Source of the DNA: Anaerotignum sp.
GTDB lineage: Bacteria; Bacillota; Clostridia; Oscillospirales; Butyricicoccaceae
Assembly: GCA_963620595.1 (NCBI GenBank)
Contig: CAVFAY010000005.1
Span: 52,187 to 116,186, forward strand
DNA: 64,000 nt
Direction of reading: 5' to 3'
Shown here: positions 6,453-14,875 of the stretch, one piece after another
Position numbering within the stretch: position 1 is the first letter of the stretch
Layout of the letters: every line of letters begins with the position of its first letter
Notes under the pieces: generated by a model
The model's database searches: none
What the model saw: only the letters and a program-made list of their open reading frames with translations
Told to the model about the DNA's origin: nothing
Translations under genes and position numbers: made by a program

Positions 6453-8249
6453 TTATTTATTCACACCGAAATGAATAGTCGTGTCCTCGTCGTTTTGCTG
6501 CTGTAAATGCATATTCAGCGGCATTATCCAGCTATTATGATCGGTATGCAGCAGTTCTTCTGCCAGCTCGGACATTGGCTCACCGAGATAGGTATCGTAC
6601 AGAACATTGATTTCCTTGTTCTCATGCGAGTAGCGCAGCGGGCTGAGACGGTCAAGGCTGTACAGCATATTGCCGCGTGCGTCAGCAAGTTCGTTTTGCT
6701 CGAACGGAATCGGCTGACCGCCGCCGCCGACACAGCCGCCTGGACATGCCATGATTTCTACGAAGTCATAGTGTACCTTATGGGTCAGAACCGCTTGAAT
6801 CAGCTTGCGGGCGTTGCCCAGACCGCTGGCAACAGCACAGCGAATGGTCGTGCCGTTGAGGTCAAATTCTGCTTCGCGCCAACCCTCTTGACCACGAATA
6901 GAACGGAAGGCATCTGCCGGAGCGTTTTCGCCGACAACCGTGTGATATGCTGTGCGCAGAGCAGCTTCCATAACACCACCGGTTGCGCCGAAGATGACAC
7001 CGGCACCGGAGCCGATACCGAGCGGAGAATCAAATTCTGCTTCCGGCAGGCTGAACACATTGATGTTCTGCATCCGCATCAGGCGATCCATTTCACGGGT
7101 CGTGAGCACGATGTCAACATCCTGCATACCGTGCTTTTTGTTTCGGTCAAAGACATGACCGTCTTTTTCTGCCTTTTTGGCGATACACGGCATGATAGCA
7201 ACACTGCAAATCTTTTCCGGATCAATGCCCATCTTTTCGGCAAAATAGGTTTTGGTAATCGCACCAAACATCTGCATCGGGCTCTTAGCAGTAGAAATCT
7301 GCTGCACGAGCTGTGGGTACTGCGACTTGACAAAGCGCATCCAACCCGGGCAGCACGAGGTGAACATCGGCAGATCCTTCAGCTCGCCGTTTTGCAGGCG
7401 CTTCAGAAATTCGGTGGATTCTTCCATGATAGTCAAATCCGCAGAGAATGCGGTGTCAAAGACATAATCAAAGCCCATTGAGCGCAGAATGGCAGTCAAG
7501 CGGCGAACCGTTGCCATCTCACGCGGCAGACCGTGTGTCTCGCCCCAAGCGGCGCGAACCGCAGGCGCAATCTGTACCACGGTAATCTTGTTCGGATCGC
7601 GCAGAGCATCCAGCACTTCGCGGGTGTCATCGCGCTCACGCAATGCACCGACCGGACAGTGCGTAATACACTGTCCGCACAGAGAGCAGTCAGAATCCTT
7701 GATCCGTCGATTGTATGTGACATCGACGGTCGTGCGGGAGCCGGAACCGCTCATGCCCCAGATGCCCAGTGTCTGAATCTTTTCGCAGTACTGGACACAG
7801 CGCATACATTTGATGCACTTTTGCACATTACGGTACAGCGGGAAAGTTTCTGTCCAGATACGCTTAGGCAAATCTTTTTTATATGGATTCTTCAGCAAAC
7901 CAAAGTTGTTTGCGACCTGCTGTAATTTACAGTTTCCGGCGCGGACACAAATTGAGCACTCGCCATCGTGCTGGGAAAGCAGCAGTTCCACATTGATGCG
8001 GCGTGCTTCCAGTGCGCGATGAGAGTTGGTGTGGACGACCATGCCTTCATATACCAGGTTGTTGCAGGAGGATACCAGTCGGCTTTCTCCCTCAACCTCC
8101 ACGCAGCAAATGCGGCACGCGCCGATTTCATTGATTTCCTTGAGATAGCACAGGGAAGGAATGGTGACGCCGGCCTTGGCAGCGGCTTCCATAATCGTTG
8201 TGCCTTCCGGTACGCGGACGGCAATGCCGTTGATAATTACATTTACCAT
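6453..8249 (-). CDS. hydA: [FeFe]-hydrogenase catalytic subunit, group A (2Fe-2S, His-4Fe-4S, 2x4Fe-4S, H-cluster)
   Basis: H-cluster motifs TSCCPGW, MPCIAKKAE, EIMACPGGCVGGGGQP; ferredoxin motifs CIKCMRC and CSLCGQCITHCP. Confidence 0.95.
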   Translation of the reverse strand: MVNVIINGIAVRVPEGTTIMEAAAKAGVTIPSLCYLKEINEIGACRICCVEVEGESRLVSSCNNLVYEGMVVHTNSHRALEARRINVELLLSQHDGECSICVRAGNCKLQQVANNFGLLKNPYKKDLPKRIWTETFPLYRNVQKCIKCMRCVQYCEKIQTLGIWGMSGSGSRTTVDVTYNRRIKDSDCSLCGQCITHCPVGALRERDDTREVLDALRDPNKITVVQIAPAVRAAWGETHGLPREMATVRRLTAILRSMGFDYVFDTAFSADLTIMEESTEFLKRLQNGELKDLPMFTSCCPGWMRFVKSQYPQLVQQISTAKSPMQMFGAITKTYFAEKMGIDPEKICSVAIMPCIAKKAEKDGHVFDRNKKHGMQDVDIVLTTREMDRLMRMQNINVFSLPEAEFDSPLGIGSGAGVIFGATGGVMEAALRTAYHTVVGENAPADAFRSIRGQEGWREAEFDLNGTTIRCAVASGLGNARKLIQAVLTHKVHYDFVEIMACPGGCVGGGGQPIPFEQNELADARGNMLYSLDRLSPLRYSHENKEINVLYDTYLGEPMSELAEELLHTDHNSWIMPLNMHLQQQNDEDTTIHFGVNK

Positions 8250-10081
8250 TGTCTCATTCGACCTCCTCTAAAGTTGCCGTAGCCGTAATGATCGCAGCGC
8301 AGGCAGCGGGAAGATTCCTGCAGAACTTCTTCCTCTGTCATGCACTCCTTGATGTCATCAAAGTTATCGACACATTCACACGCCGGACGGGTGCGTACGT
8401 TGACGCGACCGCAAGCAGTTGTCGGAGACAGCGGAGCCTCCGGAATATCCTCAACGGCGGCATGAATAACATGGTTGTAGCCGAGGAAATTGTCGATATT
8501 CGCAGCCGCAACTTTACCGGCTGCAATTGCGCGGATAACAGTGGACGGACCGGTTACGGCGTCACCGCCTGCGAAGGTCTTGGTGCTGCCTTCTACGATA
8601 CTATCCGGCAGAGCGGAGAAGCGTTCCCGATTAACAGCAATGCCTGCGGCAGCAAATGCCTTGGAGTCGATACCCTGACCGATTGCTACGATGACGATGT
8701 CGCACGGAATGACGTTTTCTTCTTTTGTTGCTTTGATTGGACTCGGTCTGCCGTCTCTGCCGACAGGACCAATGTGCTGTGGCTGGGTGATAAGAGCTGT
8801 GACATTACCGTTTTTGTCGTGCTCAATGCGCAGCGGAGCCTGCAACGGCAGAATGGTAACGCCTTCTGCAGCTGCCTCTGCAATCTCTTCAGCCAGCGCA
8901 GTCATATCGTCGACACGACGGCGATAGACGGTGGTGACATTGGAAGCACCTAAACGAATTGCTGTGCGGCTGGCATCCATGGATACATTGCCGCCGCCGA
9001 TGACGCAGACGCGCTTGCCGGTCAGATCCGGCGGGTTGCCTTCGCCAATGGCACGCAGCATAGCGACAGCGGAAACGACGCCGTTGCTGTCCTCGCCGGG
9101 GATACCGACCTTGCGGTCTACATGGGCGCCGATGCACAGCAGAACCGCATCGTATTCGCGCTCAATATCGACAACCTGAATGTCATTGCCGACAGAAATA
9201 TCGGTATGTACTTCAACGCCAGTGCTGAGAATGACATCAATATCATTTTGAAGCATGTCCTCTGGCAGACGATAGCGCGGAATGCCGTAACGCAGCATAC
9301 CGCCTAGCTTTGGACGTTGTTCGTAAACGACGGTCTGATGCCCCATCAGCTGCAGATAAAAGGCACAGGTCAAGCCGCATGGACCGCCGCCGATGATAGC
9401 AATGCGCTTGCCTGTAGACGGCTGATTAGAAATTGGCGCAACATGCAGGGCGTGAGTGACAGCATAATGCTTGATGCCGCAGATATTGACGGCGTCATCT
9501 ACCATATTTCTGCGGCAGCGTGCTTCACATGGATGCTCACAGATAAAGGCACAAGCGGTCGGGAACGGATTGTCCTTGCGGATGAGCTTTACGGCATCCT
9601 CACAGCGACCGGCGCGCACGAGAGCGATATAGCCTGGAATATCTACGTGAGCCGGACACAGAGCAACACAAGGAACAGGCTGGGTCAGACCGCTGGTACA
9701 GCGATTGTTGAGCACGTGCTCCTCATAGTCATCGCGGAAGCCCTGAACACCACGCAAAACCATACCGGCAGCTTCGTAGCCGATGGCACAGTCTGCTGTT
9801 TCCAGGATCGTACGGGCGGTACGCTCAATGCGGTCAATGGTCTCTAATGTGGCACGTTCGCTCAGAACATCATCCATGAGACTGGCAAGCTGACCCAGCC
9901 CGATACGGCATGGGGCACATTTGCCGCAGGTCTGTGCATGACACAGCTTTAGAAAACCAAGAGAAATATCCACTGGACATAGTCCTGGAGGGCTGGCTGC
10001 AATACGGCGCTCCAGATCTTTGTACAGACCCTCGACAACAGTTTGCGCCTGATTCGGGGTATCAAGACTTAATCTGCTCAA
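8243..10081 (-). CDS. NuoF-type 4Fe-4S domain fused to GltD-like FAD/NAD(P) oxidoreductase (hydrogenase partner subunit)
   Basis: TCGKCAPCRIG...CAIG; PCVALCP; ICEHPCEARC; GGGPCG; GGGNVSMD; overlaps hydA start by 7 nt; TTG start after GAGGAG. Confidence 0.9.
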   Translation of the reverse strand: MSRLSLDTPNQAQTVVEGLYKDLERRIAASPPGLCPVDISLGFLKLCHAQTCGKCAPCRIGLGQLASLMDDVLSERATLETIDRIERTARTILETADCAIGYEAAGMVLRGVQGFRDDYEEHVLNNRCTSGLTQPVPCVALCPAHVDIPGYIALVRAGRCEDAVKLIRKDNPFPTACAFICEHPCEARCRRNMVDDAVNICGIKHYAVTHALHVAPISNQPSTGKRIAIIGGGPCGLTCAFYLQLMGHQTVVYEQRPKLGGMLRYGIPRYRLPEDMLQNDIDVILSTGVEVHTDISVGNDIQVVDIEREYDAVLLCIGAHVDRKVGIPGEDSNGVVSAVAMLRAIGEGNPPDLTGKRVCVIGGGNVSMDASRTAIRLGASNVTTVYRRRVDDMTALAEEIAEAAAEGVTILPLQAPLRIEHDKNGNVTALITQPQHIGPVGRDGRPSPIKATKEENVIPCDIVIVAIGQGIDSKAFAAAGIAVNRERFSALPDSIVEGSTKTFAGGDAVTGPSTVIRAIAAGKVAAANIDNFLGYNHVIHAAVEDIPEAPLSPTTACGRVNVRTRPACECVDNFDDIKECMTEEEVLQESSRCLRCDHYGYGNFRGGRMRQW

Positions 10082-10300: not shown

Positions 10301-10340
10301 AAAAAAATCCCGCAGGCACATGATGGCGTGCCTGCGGGAA
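10301..10340 (-). terminator. Intrinsic terminator after hydG
   Basis: TCCCGCAGGCAC/GTGCCTGCGGGA stem with T-tract on minus strand. Confidence 0.75.
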
Positions 10341-10346
10341 GGAAAA

Positions 10347-11762
10347 TTAGAAACGAAAATCGCGCTGACCTTCATGAATATTTTCAATGTATACCGTTGC
10401 TTTTTCTCGTACGGCTTCATTCGGGATGGTGAGCAGTTCTTTCTTGATGAGGGCTTCACCAATCGCACGAGTTTCCGGAGACGCATAATCTTCCAGATAT
10501 TCCTTGAGTGTCATCAAGGCGTTTGGATGGCAGCAGTTGACGATCTGTTTGCTCTTGAGCAGAGACATAAAGCGGTCACCGGTTCTTCCGGCGCGATAAC
10601 ATGCGGTACAGAAGCTCGGTACATAGCCGAGATCCATCAGCCAGTGGACGACTTCATCCAGCGTGCGGCGGTCATCGACTTCAAACTGGGTGGTATCATC
10701 CGGGCGATCTTCTTCGGTGTAGCCGCCGACACTGGTGCGGGAACCGCCGCTGATTTGTGAGATACCCAGATTCAGAACGCGCTCGCGGCTTGCCTGGCTC
10801 TCACGAGTGGAGATGATCATGCCGGTATACGGCACGGCGATGCGGATACAGGCGACAATCTTGGCAAAGGTATCATCAGAAATACCGTTGTCAAAGACGT
10901 CTGGATCAATGTCATCTGCACGACGGACGCGCGGTACGCTGATGGTGTGCGGTCCCACACCCTTATATGCCTCCAGATGTTCCGCATGCATGATGATGCC
11001 GGTAAAGTCGTAGCGGTAGTTGTTCAGACCGAACAGTACACCGAGACCGACATCGTCGATGCCGCCGTCCATGGCGCGATCCATAGCTTCCGTGTGATAG
11101 GCATAATCCGACTTTGGACCTGACGGATGCAGTTGTTCATACGACTTTTTGTTGTATGTCTCCTGGAACAGAATATAGGTGCCGATACCTGCATCCTTAA
11201 GCTTGCGGTAGTTTTCCACTGTCGTTGCGGCAATGTTGACATTGACACGACGAATGGCACCGTTTTTGTGCTTGATGCTGTAAATCGTACGAATGGATTC
11301 CAGAATGTATTCAAGTGGGTTGTGAATCGGATCTTCACCGGCTTCCAGCGCCAGACGCTTGTGTCCCATATCCTGCAAAGCGATAACTTCCTGACGGATT
11401 TCTTCCTGTGTCAGCTTTTTGCGCGGAATGTGGTGATTTTTCGCGTGATACGGACAGTATTCGCAGCCATTGATGCAGTAGTTAGACAAATACAGCGGTG
11501 CAAACATGACGATGCGGTTGCCGTAAAATTCCTCTTTGATTTTGCGGGCGAGCGCATAGATTTTTTCGTTTTCGTCTTCCAGCTCACAGTCGAGAAGAAC
11601 AATGGCTTCCTTGTGGGAAATGCCCTTCATCTTTGCTGCTTTTTCCAAGATCTGGTCAATGACTTCGCGGTTATTTTTGTTTTTTTCTGCGTAGGCAAGA
11701 CATTCGCGGATTTCTTCATCGCTGATGAATTCCTCTGCCTTCGGTGACATCACGTTGTACAT
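10347..11762 (-). CDS. hydG: [FeFe]-hydrogenase H-cluster radical SAM maturase HydG
   Basis: FAPLYLSNYCINGCEYC (CxxxCxxC); C-terminal PSFCTACYR...C; ends RDFRF. Confidence 0.95.
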   Translation of the reverse strand: MYNVMSPKAEEFISDEEIRECLAYAEKNKNNREVIDQILEKAAKMKGISHKEAIVLLDCELEDENEKIYALARKIKEEFYGNRIVMFAPLYLSNYCINGCEYCPYHAKNHHIPRKKLTQEEIRQEVIALQDMGHKRLALEAGEDPIHNPLEYILESIRTIYSIKHKNGAIRRVNVNIAATTVENYRKLKDAGIGTYILFQETYNKKSYEQLHPSGPKSDYAYHTEAMDRAMDGGIDDVGLGVLFGLNNYRYDFTGIIMHAEHLEAYKGVGPHTISVPRVRRADDIDPDVFDNGISDDTFAKIVACIRIAVPYTGMIISTRESQASRERVLNLGISQISGGSRTSVGGYTEEDRPDDTTQFEVDDRRTLDEVVHWLMDLGYVPSFCTACYRAGRTGDRFMSLLKSKQIVNCCHPNALMTLKEYLEDYASPETRAIGEALIKKELLTIPNEAVREKATVYIENIHEGQRDFRF

Positions 11763-11787
11763 ACAATTTCCTCCTGATTTCTCTCTC

Positions 11788-12036
11788 TTACAGCTTAGAA
11801 TACACGGATTTTGCCGTCACGCCGTCCAGCATACCAATTTTTCCGGACATAGCACTGATAATAGACACCGGCGCATCGACAGCGATACTGATGAGCGAAA
11901 TATGCCGCTTTTCATACGGCAGACCCATGCGGCCGATGATATACTTTCGATACTCGTGCAGAATTTCGTTGAGCTGGTCGATGTGATCAGCACGTTCAAC
12001 GACGATGGCGAGAATCGCAACGCGGGTTTCCTCCAT
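11788..12036 (-). CDS. TM1266-family iron-only hydrogenase system putative regulator (ACT-like)
   Basis: RVAILAIVVE...LNEILHEY..YIIGRMGLPY...SGKIGMLDGVTAK; AGGAGGAG RBS. Confidence 0.85.
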   Translation of the reverse strand: MEETRVAILAIVVERADHIDQLNEILHEYRKYIIGRMGLPYEKRHISLISIAVDAPVSIISAMSGKIGMLDGVTAKSVYSKL

Positions 12037-12059
12037 AGTAAACTCCTCCTCATACATAT

Positions 12060-12210
12060 AAAAACATCCCTGCGCGGCTGCGCAGAGATGCAACGAGCTT
12101 GTTGTTCACATCCGTCTTTCCCGTGAGAAATTGGATTCTTGCGGGGCAGTCTATGTGCAGTCAGCAGCGGTTTGCAGTGAGAAGAAACCTTCTGTCTGCG
12201 CACCAATATA
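12060..12210 (-). promoter_or_regulatory. Structured 5' leader ending in intrinsic terminator (candidate attenuator/riboswitch)
   Basis: Extended -10 TGGTATAGT at 12216-12224; 11-bp terminator stem plus U5 at 12060-12090 before the RBS. Confidence 0.55.
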
Positions 12211-12259
12211 TACTAACTATACCACAGATTGCTGAAAAAGTACATGGAAATGCTGCCGG

Positions 12260-13036
12260 TTATGCATCGGCTTCGAAAGAACGCTGATTGTCTATGTGTA
12301 ATTCATAACGGACACGGTCAGCAATCGTCAAAATCAGTTCGCGGTTTGGCGGTCGTCTTGTGGAACTGAAGCCTGTCATTCGTCCGCCGGAGCGCTTCCA
12401 CGCAATTTCTACAGCATTGCGAATGTCACGTTCGACACTTGTCCACGTTGTGTGATATTTTCGTGCGACAGCCGGATATAAAATCTTGGTCACTGATTCT
12501 GCAACGGAAGGATCATTCAGCGTCATGAGAATACATTCCCGTGCATACCGATAACCGGCGACATGTGCCGGCAGCTGCAAGCTGCTGATGATTTGCGTGA
12601 CACGGCGTGAGACATCATGTGCAGAGGGCTGTTGTTGATCTGGTAAAAATTTCCGCGGAGTACAGCCATAACGGATAATCAGTTCCACGAGAGAAGTCAG
12701 ATCAATCGGTTTGCGCAGGAAAAAGCTAGCACCGAGCCGATCACATTCCGCTACCGTATGCGAAGAGGCGAAGGAAGAGACAATAAAGATCACAGGACAT
12801 TGTTCCGCGGGCAGATCTTTCAATTCTTTGAGAATAGAAAGCGCGTTGCCGCCGGGCAGCATCAGATCGATCAGCAGAGTGTCTGGCTGCTCCTGCAGGA
12901 TCATATCAGTTAATCCGTCGCCGGAAGAATAAATGCCGGTAATCGACAATTCTGCTGAGACTTCGATCGCGGATGACAGCGAACGGGTGAGGCTGGAATC
13001 ATCCGATGCGATCAAAATACGAGTGAGCGATAACAT
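12260..13036 (-). CDS. Spo0A-family response regulator (receiver + Spo0A C-terminal domain), divergent
   Basis: Receiver SDD, IDLMLP, RKP; C-term LPAHVAGYRY..VTKILYPAVARKYHTT..VERDIRNAVEIAW. Confidence 0.85.
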   Translation of the reverse strand: MLSLTRILIASDDSSLTRSLSSAIEVSAELSITGIYSSGDGLTDMILQEQPDTLLIDLMLPGGNALSILKELKDLPAEQCPVIFIVSSFASSHTVAECDRLGASFFLRKPIDLTSLVELIIRYGCTPRKFLPDQQQPSAHDVSRRVTQIISSLQLPAHVAGYRYARECILMTLNDPSVAESVTKILYPAVARKYHTTWTSVERDIRNAVEIAWKRSGGRMTGFSSTRRPPNRELILTIADRVRYELHIDNQRSFEADA

Positions 13037-13103
13037 AATAGAATCCCCTTTTTTGAAGTATTTATCGTGTATGTATTATAACGGAAATTAGAATGCGGAA
13101 CAA

Positions 13104-13286
13104 TGACGGAGTTGTACAAAAAGTTATCCAAAACGAAATATCGACAATTCTTGTTTGTGCCGAATAATTTCGGATGAATGTCAAATTTTTACGAAAAAAC
13201 TGTCATTTACACGGATAGAAAACGAAAATTTTATCGGTAAAAATGACGATAAATAAGATATTTAGAATTATCGCGCCAATTCGACA
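13104..13286. promoter_or_regulatory. Cluster of 0A-box-like sites (TGNCGAA)
   Basis: Perfect TGCCGAA 13158-13164 and TTCGACA 13280-13286; 1-mismatch copies at 13104, 13140, 13179, 13189, 13244. Confidence 0.5.
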
Positions 13287-13342
13287 AAAACAGAAAAAGA
13301 ACAGATCCTCTGATGAAATCAGAGGATCTGAAAAAGGTGCAA

Positions 13343-14875
13343 TTATTTCTTGTTTTCCAGACGTGCGTTGACCTCATCAAAGGTAGCAAGAATGTCTGCG
13401 GGTGGAGTTGGTGTCACCAGACTGACAACAACATTAACGAGCAGAGCCAGAACAAATGCCGGCAGCAGCTCATAGATACCCAAAATACCGCCTATCGGAG
13501 CGATCAGGAATTTCCAAACGAATACCATGATGCCGCCGACAACCATGCCGGACAGGGCACCTTGCAAGGTGGAACGCTTCCAGAACAGTGCCAACAGGAC
13601 AATCGGACCAAAGGTCGCACCAAAGCCTGCCCAAGCAAACGATACAATCTTGAATACCGAGCTATCTGGGTTACGTGCCAAGAACACCGCAATAACGGCA
13701 ATAACAATAACGGTCAGACGAGCGATGAAAATGCTCTGTTTCTGGGTCAACTTGACACCGAATAGATCCTGCAGCAGGTTCTGCGAGAAGCTGGAGGAAG
13801 CAGCGAGCAGCTGTGAGTCTGAGGTAGACATAGTGGATGCCAGAATACCGGACAGAATCACACCGGCGATGATAGCTGCAAGAACGCCGTGGCTGCTGAT
13901 GAGCTGTGCAACGGTGATAATGATGCGCTCCGGATCTGCCAGTACCGGTAGAGCCCCGGCTTTGGTCATACCCAAACCGGAAATACCGATGAATACGGCA
14001 ACAGCCATAGAAATCACGACCCATACTGTAGCGATACGGCGCGAGGTCTTGAGTTTTTTCTCGTCTTCGGTTGCCATAAAGCGTAGCAGAACGTGCGGCA
14101 TACCGAAATAGCCGAGTCCCCATGCCAGCATGGAGAACGAGGTCAGTGCGCCGTAGGTAGAAGCAGAATTGGTCTCCGGATTGTATACACTAGTCAGGCT
14201 CAAATAACCTGGCAGGGCACGCGCATTGGTCAGTACGGCATCCATACCACCGGCCATGTGTGTGGCATAAACCACAACGATGACAATAGCAATAGTCATA
14301 ACAATAGACTGAATCAGATCTGTCGTGCTGGCTGCCAAAAAGCCGCCCAGTGCGCAGTAACCAACAATAATAGCCGCGCTGACAACCATGGCAACCATAT
14401 AATTTATTCCGAACAACTGGTTAAACAACTTACCGCAAGCAGCAAAGCCGGAAGCGGTGTATGGAATAAAGAAGATGATGATGATAACGGCGGCAACAGA
14501 AGAAAGAATGTGCTTTTTGTCACCATAGCGATCTGCGAAGAAGTCCGGAATCGTGATCGAGTTGGTTGTGTGAGTGTATACGCGGATGCGGCGTGCTACG
14601 AGAAGCCAGTTGAGATATGTACCGATTGCCAGACCAATTGCCGTCCAAACGGCATCGGCAATACCAGTTAGATAGGCAACGCCTGGCAGACCCATAAGCA
14701 GCCAACTGCTCATATCAGAGGCTTCCGCACTCATGGCGGTAACTAGCGGACCGAGCTTTCGACCGCCTAAGTAGAAATCATCGGTGTTTTTGTTCTTGTT
14801 GGACATTTTGAAACCGATGAGCAGCATCCCTACGAGATAAACGATAATCGTAAGGACAATGAGAATGTTAGACAT
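13343..14875 (-). CDS. putP: Sodium/proline symporter
   Basis: DFYLGGRKLGPLVTAMSAEASDMSSWLLMGLPG; WGLGYFGMPH; MSTSDSQLL. Confidence 0.92.
   Translation of the reverse strand: MSNILIVLTIIVYLVGMLLIGFKMSNKNKNTDDFYLGGRKLGPLVTAMSAEASDMSSWLLMGLPGVAYLTGIADAVWTAIGLAIGTYLNWLLVARRIRVYTHTTNSITIPDFFADRYGDKKHILSSVAAVIIIIFFIPYTASGFAACGKLFNQLFGINYMVAMVVSAAIIVGYCALGGFLAASTTDLIQSIVMTIAIVIVVVYATHMAGGMDAVLTNARALPGYLSLTSVYNPETNSASTYGALTSFSMLAWGLGYFGMPHVLLRFMATEDEKKLKTSRRIATVWVVISMAVAVFIGISGLGMTKAGALPVLADPERIIITVAQLISSHGVLAAIIAGVILSGILASTMSTSDSQLLAASSSFSQNLLQDLFGVKLTQKQSIFIARLTVIVIAVIAVFLARNPDSSVFKIVSFAWAGFGATFGPIVLLALFWKRSTLQGALSGMVVGGIMVFVWKFLIAPIGGILGIYELLPAFVLALLVNVVVSLVTPTPPADILATFDEVNARLENKK

Follow-up and report, generated by a model that had tools for sequence, protein, structure and literature searches.

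The TM1266-hydG operon of the window (the whole 64,000-nucleotide stretch of DNA analysed here) is preceded by a leader that is almost certainly a real, conserved and uncatalogued regulatory RNA. Its conserved unit is a pseudo-symmetric hairpin, repeated twice, which was absent from an earlier sequence-only reading of the same DNA. We consider it likely that the leader is a PyrR-like attenuator, an off-switch bound by oligomeric TM1266 and probably gated by a ligand. Conservation, covariation, position, terminator, complementarity and co-occurrence were computed; the protein binding, the direction of the switch, and the existence and nature of a ligand are what we infer.

The leader and its repeated hairpin

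Every sequence feature that the earlier reading had described in this leader was recovered on the minus strand at its coordinates (Table 1), including the extended -10 and the 11-bp terminator with U5 just before the ribosome-binding site, AGGAGGAG. The terminator stem runs from 12090 to 12065 and the U5 tract from 12064 to 12060, and the scanner adds a twelfth, G-U pair (12091-12064). The CCCG..AGAA/TTCT..CGGG stem had been drawn correctly. The GGTTT/AAACC stem is neither the predicted nor the conserved register, in both of which GGU at 12204-12202 pairs with ACC, and a fragment likened to cobalamin riboswitches is a coincidence, being merely the 5' strand of hairpin 2, which varies among relatives. 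The leader folds better than its shuffled versions (z = -3.6), none of 200 surpassing it. Its promoter was not listed by the promoter scanner, and the -35 is poor. A BLAST search with the leader against its own genome returned a single copy only, and hairpins 1 and 2 are the sole significant copies of the motif in the whole genome; both belonged to the seed of covariance model R1, whose best non-leader match in the window scored 11.7 bits.

Table 1. Features of the TM1266-hydG locus in the window
Feature	Positions	Strand	Evidence and remarks
Extended -10, TG-G-TATAGT	12216..12224	-	Read from sequence; predicted transcription start near 12209
Hairpin 1, G-UGC-GCAG-ACA-G ... C-UCA-CUGC-AAA-C	12166..12207	-	Covariance model R1, 27.4 bits; folds
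Hairpin 2, C-UGC-CCCG-CAA-G ... C-UCA-CGGG-AAA-G (same motif again)	12112..12153	-	R1, 32.9 bits
Intrinsic terminator, 11-12 bp stem, 4-nt loop, U5	12060..12091	-	Terminator scan, folding
Shine-Dalgarno of TM1266, AGGAGGAG	12043..12050	-	Sequence; ATG at 12036
TM1266-family protein, 82 aa	11788..12036	-	TIGR03959, PF21699
hydG, [FeFe]-hydrogenase H-cluster radical SAM maturase	10347..11762	-	TIGR03955, 925 bits
Terminator closing the two-gene TM1266-hydG operon	10308..10339	-	13-bp stem and U tract
Spo0A-like response regulator, upstream	12260..13036	-	TIGR02875, 150 bits (cut-off 200)

The naming of TM1266 and hydG also held. TM1266 scored 104 bits against a cut-off of 61 with TIGR03959 and 102 against 27 bits with PF21699, which places it in the family, and the hydG match is strong (Table 1). 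The upstream gene had been called Spo0A-like; it does match TIGR02875, at a score under the Spo0A cut-off, and the gene in this position varies among relatives. A 129-codon open reading frame from 12206 was considered as a leader peptide and rejected, since a ribosome-binding site is missing and close relatives do not preserve the TTG start. Directly downstream of hydG, a group A [FeFe]-hydrogenase gene (NF040763, 757 bits, cut-off 765) and a GltD/NuoF-like flavoprotein gene occupy 6453-10081 on the minus strand, set off by a separate terminator and a -35/-10 match at 10176-10148. The hydE and hydF genes of the window genome lie apart from hydG, and the motif was not found with them; a second, divergent hydF-like gene, below the cut-off, was present in 8/8 genus members tested (loci in the window genome: G000 C3:139402-140412, C44:7477-8631, C11:48721-49863).

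A single type of hairpin, ~35 nt long, recurs in regions upstream of TM1266 drawn from the genus, family, order and phylum. Both of its arms have the sequence C-UGA-N3/4-RAA-G and are paired to one another; the resulting duplex, a 3-4 bp stem flanked by two 3x3 internal loops, is two-fold symmetric. The internal-loop positions are strongly kept in the 148 scored copies (for example 138 U, 138 G and 144 A, partly through selection); the apical arm, or spacer, measures 6 to 25 nt, and its loop and stem vary freely. Tandem copies, mostly 47-54 nt apart, occur in 41/148 leaders. A pattern score of at least 21 was reached by 148 of 269 distinct upstream regions (5 loci with short flanks excluded), compared with 1 reverse complement and 1 shuffle. 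Because the scorer was designed on the first loci, the fair count is that for loci fetched later, where 94/154 were positive: 70/104 before hydE/F/G or aspA, 19/21 before transporters and 5/29 elsewhere. The remaining 60/154 fell below threshold, among them 34/104 in the hyd/aspA context, and the motif was upstream of 0/20 weak TM1266 paralogues.

The central stem covaries. In copies picked by loop sequence alone (n = 25), 62% of its pairs were Watson-Crick, or 78% with G-U; when halves were swapped between loci, 30% were Watson-Crick, with a maximum of 49% in 5000 swaps. Six ambiguous registers were dropped from this test, and the 3-bp class alone has n = 7; a first test that mixed the 3-bp and 4-bp registers gave 50% vs 29%. 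Pair counts on alignments A1 and A3 are biased by selection or fitting and were left out of the argument. The conservation and covariation among homologues by which the sequence-only reading had proposed to judge its leader are both present.

A metagenome scan with a loose, sequence-only pattern placed 15/45 stem-pairable matches before TM1266, hydE or hydG, compared with 0/73 unpaired ones; most matches are due to chance, and a single repeated sequence accounts for 6 of the 15. Motif-bearing sequences include Clostridia, a Loigolactobacillus, and MAGs labelled Prevotella, Victivallales and Alphaproteobacteria. Leader BLAST across the family reached only 12/164 genomes, several by chance; therefore structure-aware searches were needed. 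A whole-genome search with a short model, in which the best 42 candidates per genome were scored, matched at least 29 of 151 genomes and was excluded from the counts; its coding-region false positives stayed under ~21 bits, with two stronger ones (G008, G140) away from hyd genes.

In a scan of window positions 11000-13500 against Rfam 15, the best E was 5.9 and every family, including cobalamin, T-box, SAM, TPP, PyrR and pan, fell far under its gathering threshold; 20 related loci yielded two tRNAs and nothing else. The earlier statement that the leader matches no T-box, SAM-I or TPP element thus stands. We found no description of the hairpin RNA in the literature, though the supplements of PMC11109978 (107 protein-binding candidates) and PMC5737381 might list it. 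By term search, hydG is absent from the main text of PMC6429828, PMC11109978, PMC8632094, PMC5737381 and PMC2864571, and hydG and TM1266 are absent from the supplements of PMC6429828 and PMC8632094. Nor did we find post-transcriptional control of [FeFe]-hydrogenase maturation described in the literature.

Terminator, alternative helix and ribosome-binding site

An intrinsic terminator between the predicted promoter and the first start codon is the general mark of an attenuator, and the leader has one. A terminator of -10 kcal/mol or lower lay in the last 120 nt of 130/148 motif-bearing leaders, compared with 12/64 motif-less TM1266 leaders and 5/146 coding controls, and a -10-like hexamer preceded the first hairpin within 45 nt in 96/148 leaders vs 14/148 control windows. 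No same-strand gene lay within 400 nt of 56/148 motif-bearing leaders. Because of this enrichment, the -10 placement and the leaders that have no same-strand neighbour, the terminator is part of the leader, more than the mere end of an upstream gene. These data speak against a purely constitutive terminator of the Spo0A-like gene, the outcome that the earlier reading had named as its own refutation.

They also bear on the idea that the repeats are DNA operators for TM1266 or another factor, behind a constitutive terminator that ends the Spo0A-like transcript. At the DNA level CTGA-N4-RAAG is a direct repeat, the Spo0A-like gene lies on the same strand and ends 50 nt upstream of the window promoter, and Table 4 of PMC8457756 lists a DNA site for Rex at the hyd operon of C. 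thermocellum, the sole published regulation of a hyd operon that we found. However, the N4 halves are complementary rather than identical (identity 0.32), the spacer length is far from constant, the motif is strand-specific and sits downstream of the -10, over a third of the leaders have no same-strand neighbour within 400 nt, and the hairpin tail is complementary to the terminator. No Rex-like box was seen near the leader. This account is already strongly disfavoured, and we give it hardly any weight.

The second mark of an attenuator, a conserved alternative helix that excludes the terminator, was strong outside the genus of the window genome and weaker within it. Outside the genus, the 12-nt tail from the last RAAG pairs with the 5' arm of its own terminator at -9.4 kcal/mol, compared with -7.2 kcal/mol for swapped arms (0/5000 permutations, n = 125), a signal that is missing from two adjacent control segments. 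In 101/125 of these leaders, 2 or more nucleotides of the arm become unpaired when the hairpin is held. Within the genus, the tail gave no signal and the 5' strands a weaker one: pairing of the hairpin 1 5' strand with the arm was -13.4 native, -12.4 swapped (p = 0.025) and -10.6 shuffled (n = 17 of 22; 5 unparsed), and holding the last hairpin frees the arm in 6/13.

For the window itself, the earlier reading had proposed an antiterminator in which UGCGCAGA (12202-12195, minus strand) pairs with UCUGCGCA (12086-12079). The complementarity is perfect, and a perfect 8-bp complement to the terminator arm arises in 55/5000 shuffles. The proposal survives in part: folding predicts the helix in the window and its conservation across the genus is modest, but in leaders from other genera this role would fall to the hairpin's 3' tail. 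In a window transcript cut at the terminator loop, the UGCGCAGA:UCUGCGCA helix forms (probability 0.8-0.94, -42.2 kcal/mol) and hairpin 1 is sacrificed. At full length the terminator fold is more stable by ~11.5 kcal/mol, and antitermination here would therefore have to be kinetic; this predicted kinetic read-through is the weakest step for the window genome. Holding both hairpins lowers arm pairing from 9.4 to 5.8 nt (of 12). The predicted logic is the same in every lineage, in that a formed hairpin would favour termination.

A second output mode is suggested within the operon. The hairpin occurs just before hydG in 32/145 operons, and in the 15 internal copies examined its 3' end overlaps or adjoins the Shine-Dalgarno, 5-16 nt from the ATG, an arrangement that would permit translational repression. 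Two modes are thus predicted, overlap with the antiterminator or overlap with the hydG ribosome-binding site.

In the mechanism that we favour, oligomeric TM1266 would bind the two-fold symmetric hairpins and keep them folded. Hairpins held in this way would leave the terminator free to form, and transcription would stop before TM1266-hydG. When TM1266 is not bound, a hairpin strand would pair with the nascent 5' arm of the terminator and allow read-through; this strand would be the 5' strand of hairpin 1 in the window genome and the RAAGG tail in most other lineages. On the Shine-Dalgarno of hydG, a hairpin kept folded in the same way would block translation rather than end transcription. A small molecule connected with the supply of H-cluster probably controls whether TM1266 binds.

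TM1266 as the candidate binder

Behind the RNA, the first gene is in most cases TM1266, and the two travel together. Of 78 genomes of the family with hydG, 77 also encode TM1266, and in the remaining one, which is 76% complete, the contig ends beside hydG. In a phylum sample of 251 genomes, 17/123 hydG genomes had no TM1266 or a weak paralogue only, and the RNA was found near the hyd genes in 0/17 of these, or 0/15 (13 families) once two contig ends are set aside. Where TM1266 lies elsewhere on the chromosome, the RNA still preceded the hyd genes in 17/20 hand-picked genomes, or 16/18 assessable ones (without a locus that retains a TM1266 remnant and another at a contig end), and the same pattern in trans was seen in 7/9 more genomes of the family. 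In families f33 and f97 the RNA is present in TM1266-positive members and missing from TM1266-negative ones, so that the two were lost together. The one exception is G112 (98% complete, 220 contigs), in which the RNA and a terminator precede a transporter and no TM1266 was found. Fisher p values overstate these associations because the genomes are related, and the searches may have overlooked a divergent RNA in lineages that lack TM1266. The distribution of the RNA is tied to TM1266 also in trans (16/18 vs 0/15), as is characteristic of protein-binding leaders.

The sequence-only reading had proposed a cis-regulatory RNA that either senses a metabolite or metal or is bound by TM1266. The regulatory RNA itself is supported by conservation, covariation and terminator/antiterminator logic, and of the two options co-occurrence favours TM1266. 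Under the other option, the hairpin would be the aptamer of a riboswitch and contact its metabolite or metal ligand itself (Fe, tyrosine, SAM or an H-cluster fragment), with TM1266 accompanying it for some other reason. The two expression platforms and several non-homologous target genes are as riboswitches show, the motif is often in tandem, and G112 retains the RNA. Yet a riboswitch would be expected before the pathway genes whatever the partner protein, and the 15 assessable hydG genomes that have no TM1266 have no RNA despite needing control of the same pathway. The core is also small, unbranched and two-fold symmetric with a variable loop and stem, a pattern that was read as protein-binding for the pan motif (PMC2864571). 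We judge a riboswitch improbable.

TM1266 itself adopts a beta-alpha-beta-beta-alpha-beta fold, like NikR C-terminal and ACT domains (model pLDDT 94), and Foldseek places 2NZC, NikR and IlvN at the top of the matches to the model. 2NZC, which has four chains, matches at E 5.5e-10. Residues R5, R36, K66 and K76 are kept at 92-100% in orthologues and G-R-x-G-x-P is invariant; paralogues found without the RNA are acidic and have often lost K66/K76. The annotation says only 'putative regulator', though the protein has no DNA-binding domain. The proteins nearest to TM1266 in fold sense metals or amino acids. Many genomes of the phylum also contain, in varied contexts, a divergent and acidic subfamily of TM1266-like proteins (L219-L238) with no RNA leader.

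TM1266 is the likely binder because the RNA site is symmetric, the protein is oligomeric (as 2NZC indicates) and the RNA depends on it in trans. The attenuator might instead bind another protein that co-occurs with TM1266, or TM1266 only inside a complex. TM1266 is barely basic (mean net charge +0.5) and has no recognised RNA-binding domain, and co-occurrence cannot separate it from a co-inherited factor. Against this, the RNA persists with TM1266 in 19 tested genomes without hydG and hydF and in 5/5 tested without hydE, so the maturases are not the binder; TM1266 is also the usual first gene, and it was lost jointly with the RNA within f33 and f97. A different or composite binder seems to us distinctly unlikely.

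Targets, signal and known systems

Besides the hyd genes, the RNA precedes an aspA-like lyase, an NMT1-like ABC transporter and putative ECF-type membrane proteins. The lyase is linked to H-cluster synthesis in PMC11736057. RNA-TM1266 also heads a FecCD system with hydE and nifH/nifE-like genes, in which the C-terminus of the ATPase is a TM1266-like domain (L318:4259-5386, L204, L298, L191). Where a TM1266 gene has become detached from the hyd operon, the operon keeps the leader and the gene itself mostly lacks one; simple self-titration would therefore not suffice, which makes a ligand likely. For the sensed signal, our best guess is an H-cluster precursor or an iron species.

The NMT1-like transporter carries the RNA in 19 genomes that have neither hydG nor hydF, and 18/19 of these have an [FeFe]-hydrogenase domain. 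That RNA and TM1266 head a transporter where the maturases are missing hints at cofactor salvage. Hydrogenase genes were found in 42/44 genomes tested, with the transporter or without it, and their presence therefore fails to single out salvage. In one genus, the RNA-TM1266-transporter operon occurs without hydG in 19/22 genomes and hydG without the operon in 9/12. A family-wide anticorrelation of transporter and hydG (16/78 vs 47/86) mixes subfamilies and was set aside. Stand-alone transporter homologues had the RNA in 2/10 TM1266-positive and 0/10 TM1266-negative genomes.

Several observations stand beside these. Many near-complete genomes of family f1 (G073, G074, G082, G090, G104 and G116 among them) have [FeFe]-hydrogenase domains and no hydG or hydF match. 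Within one genus, two genomes with hydE-hydG (L054 and L056; G097, G099) no longer have the transporter that stood between TM1266 and the next conserved gene, and a decayed leader is all that is left there; a third genome of this genus (L334; G096) has kept the transporter and contains no maturases. The NMT1-like transporter operon is followed by a conserved protein of 400 aa (L335:3414-4613) for which NCBIfam gave no match. More distant binding-protein homologues without the RNA (L499, L500, L501, L513) follow a ~220-aa gene that is Crp/Fnr-like by eye.

A broader and rather doubtful reading, to which we nonetheless assign some chance, is that TM1266 is a ligand-gated RNA-binding regulator sensing an H-cluster precursor, with a regulon that would join synthesis (hydE/F/G, aspA) to uptake, the NMT1-like transporter importing the precursor. 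If salvage is true, bacteria share the [FeFe]-hydrogenase cofactor as vitamins are shared, which bears on how many maturase-less relatives with hydrogenase genes could obtain the H-cluster. The RNA offers TM1266 a concrete target, a 35-nt hairpin for an 82-aa protein with a solved homologue structure. If the attenuator model is right, attenuation is carried out by a NikR-C/ACT-like domain, and the make-up of the regulon (maturases, aspA, three transporter kinds and a nitrogenase-like cluster) points to the sensed molecule.

As in cobalamin, T-box, SAM-I and TPP leaders, the RNA is a terminator-bearing leader before cofactor genes; unlike them, it has no Rfam match at any threshold tested, and the ACUGCCCC-like stretch is not conserved in relatives. 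TM1266 shares its fold with the NikR C-terminal domain and ACT domains such as IlvN (TM ~0.85 to NikR; Pfam NikR_C weak, E 0.024), but, unlike NikR, it lacks a ribbon-helix-helix part for DNA binding, and its His/Cys residues form no conserved set (one His at 75%).

The hairpin leader belongs to neither the PyrR nor the pan family, although it resembles both. In the pyr operon of Bacillus, operon-encoded PyrR binds an anti-antiterminator stem-loop and thereby favours an intrinsic terminator; the site recurs inside the operon, and biosynthesis and transport genes share it. Similarly, TM1266 is operon-encoded and the proposed anti-antiterminator binder, the hairpin recurs in the operon, and synthesis and transport genes are among its targets. 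The leader RNA differs in being a two-fold symmetric double internal loop with no Rfam PyrR match, and TM1266 is an 82-aa NikR-C/ACT-like domain whereas PyrR is a phosphoribosyltransferase. The pan motif (Weinberg et al. 2010, PMC2864571) is a simple interrupted stem, often in tandem, that lies before cofactor-synthesis genes and was proposed as a site for a dimeric protein; the hyd hairpin is likewise simple, interrupted, tandem and placed before cofactor genes. It has no Rfam pan match; pan is marked by two bulged A residues and lies before pantothenate genes, whereas the hyd hairpin has two 3x3 UGA/RAA loops, precedes hyd genes and, unlike pan, has a candidate protein at hand.
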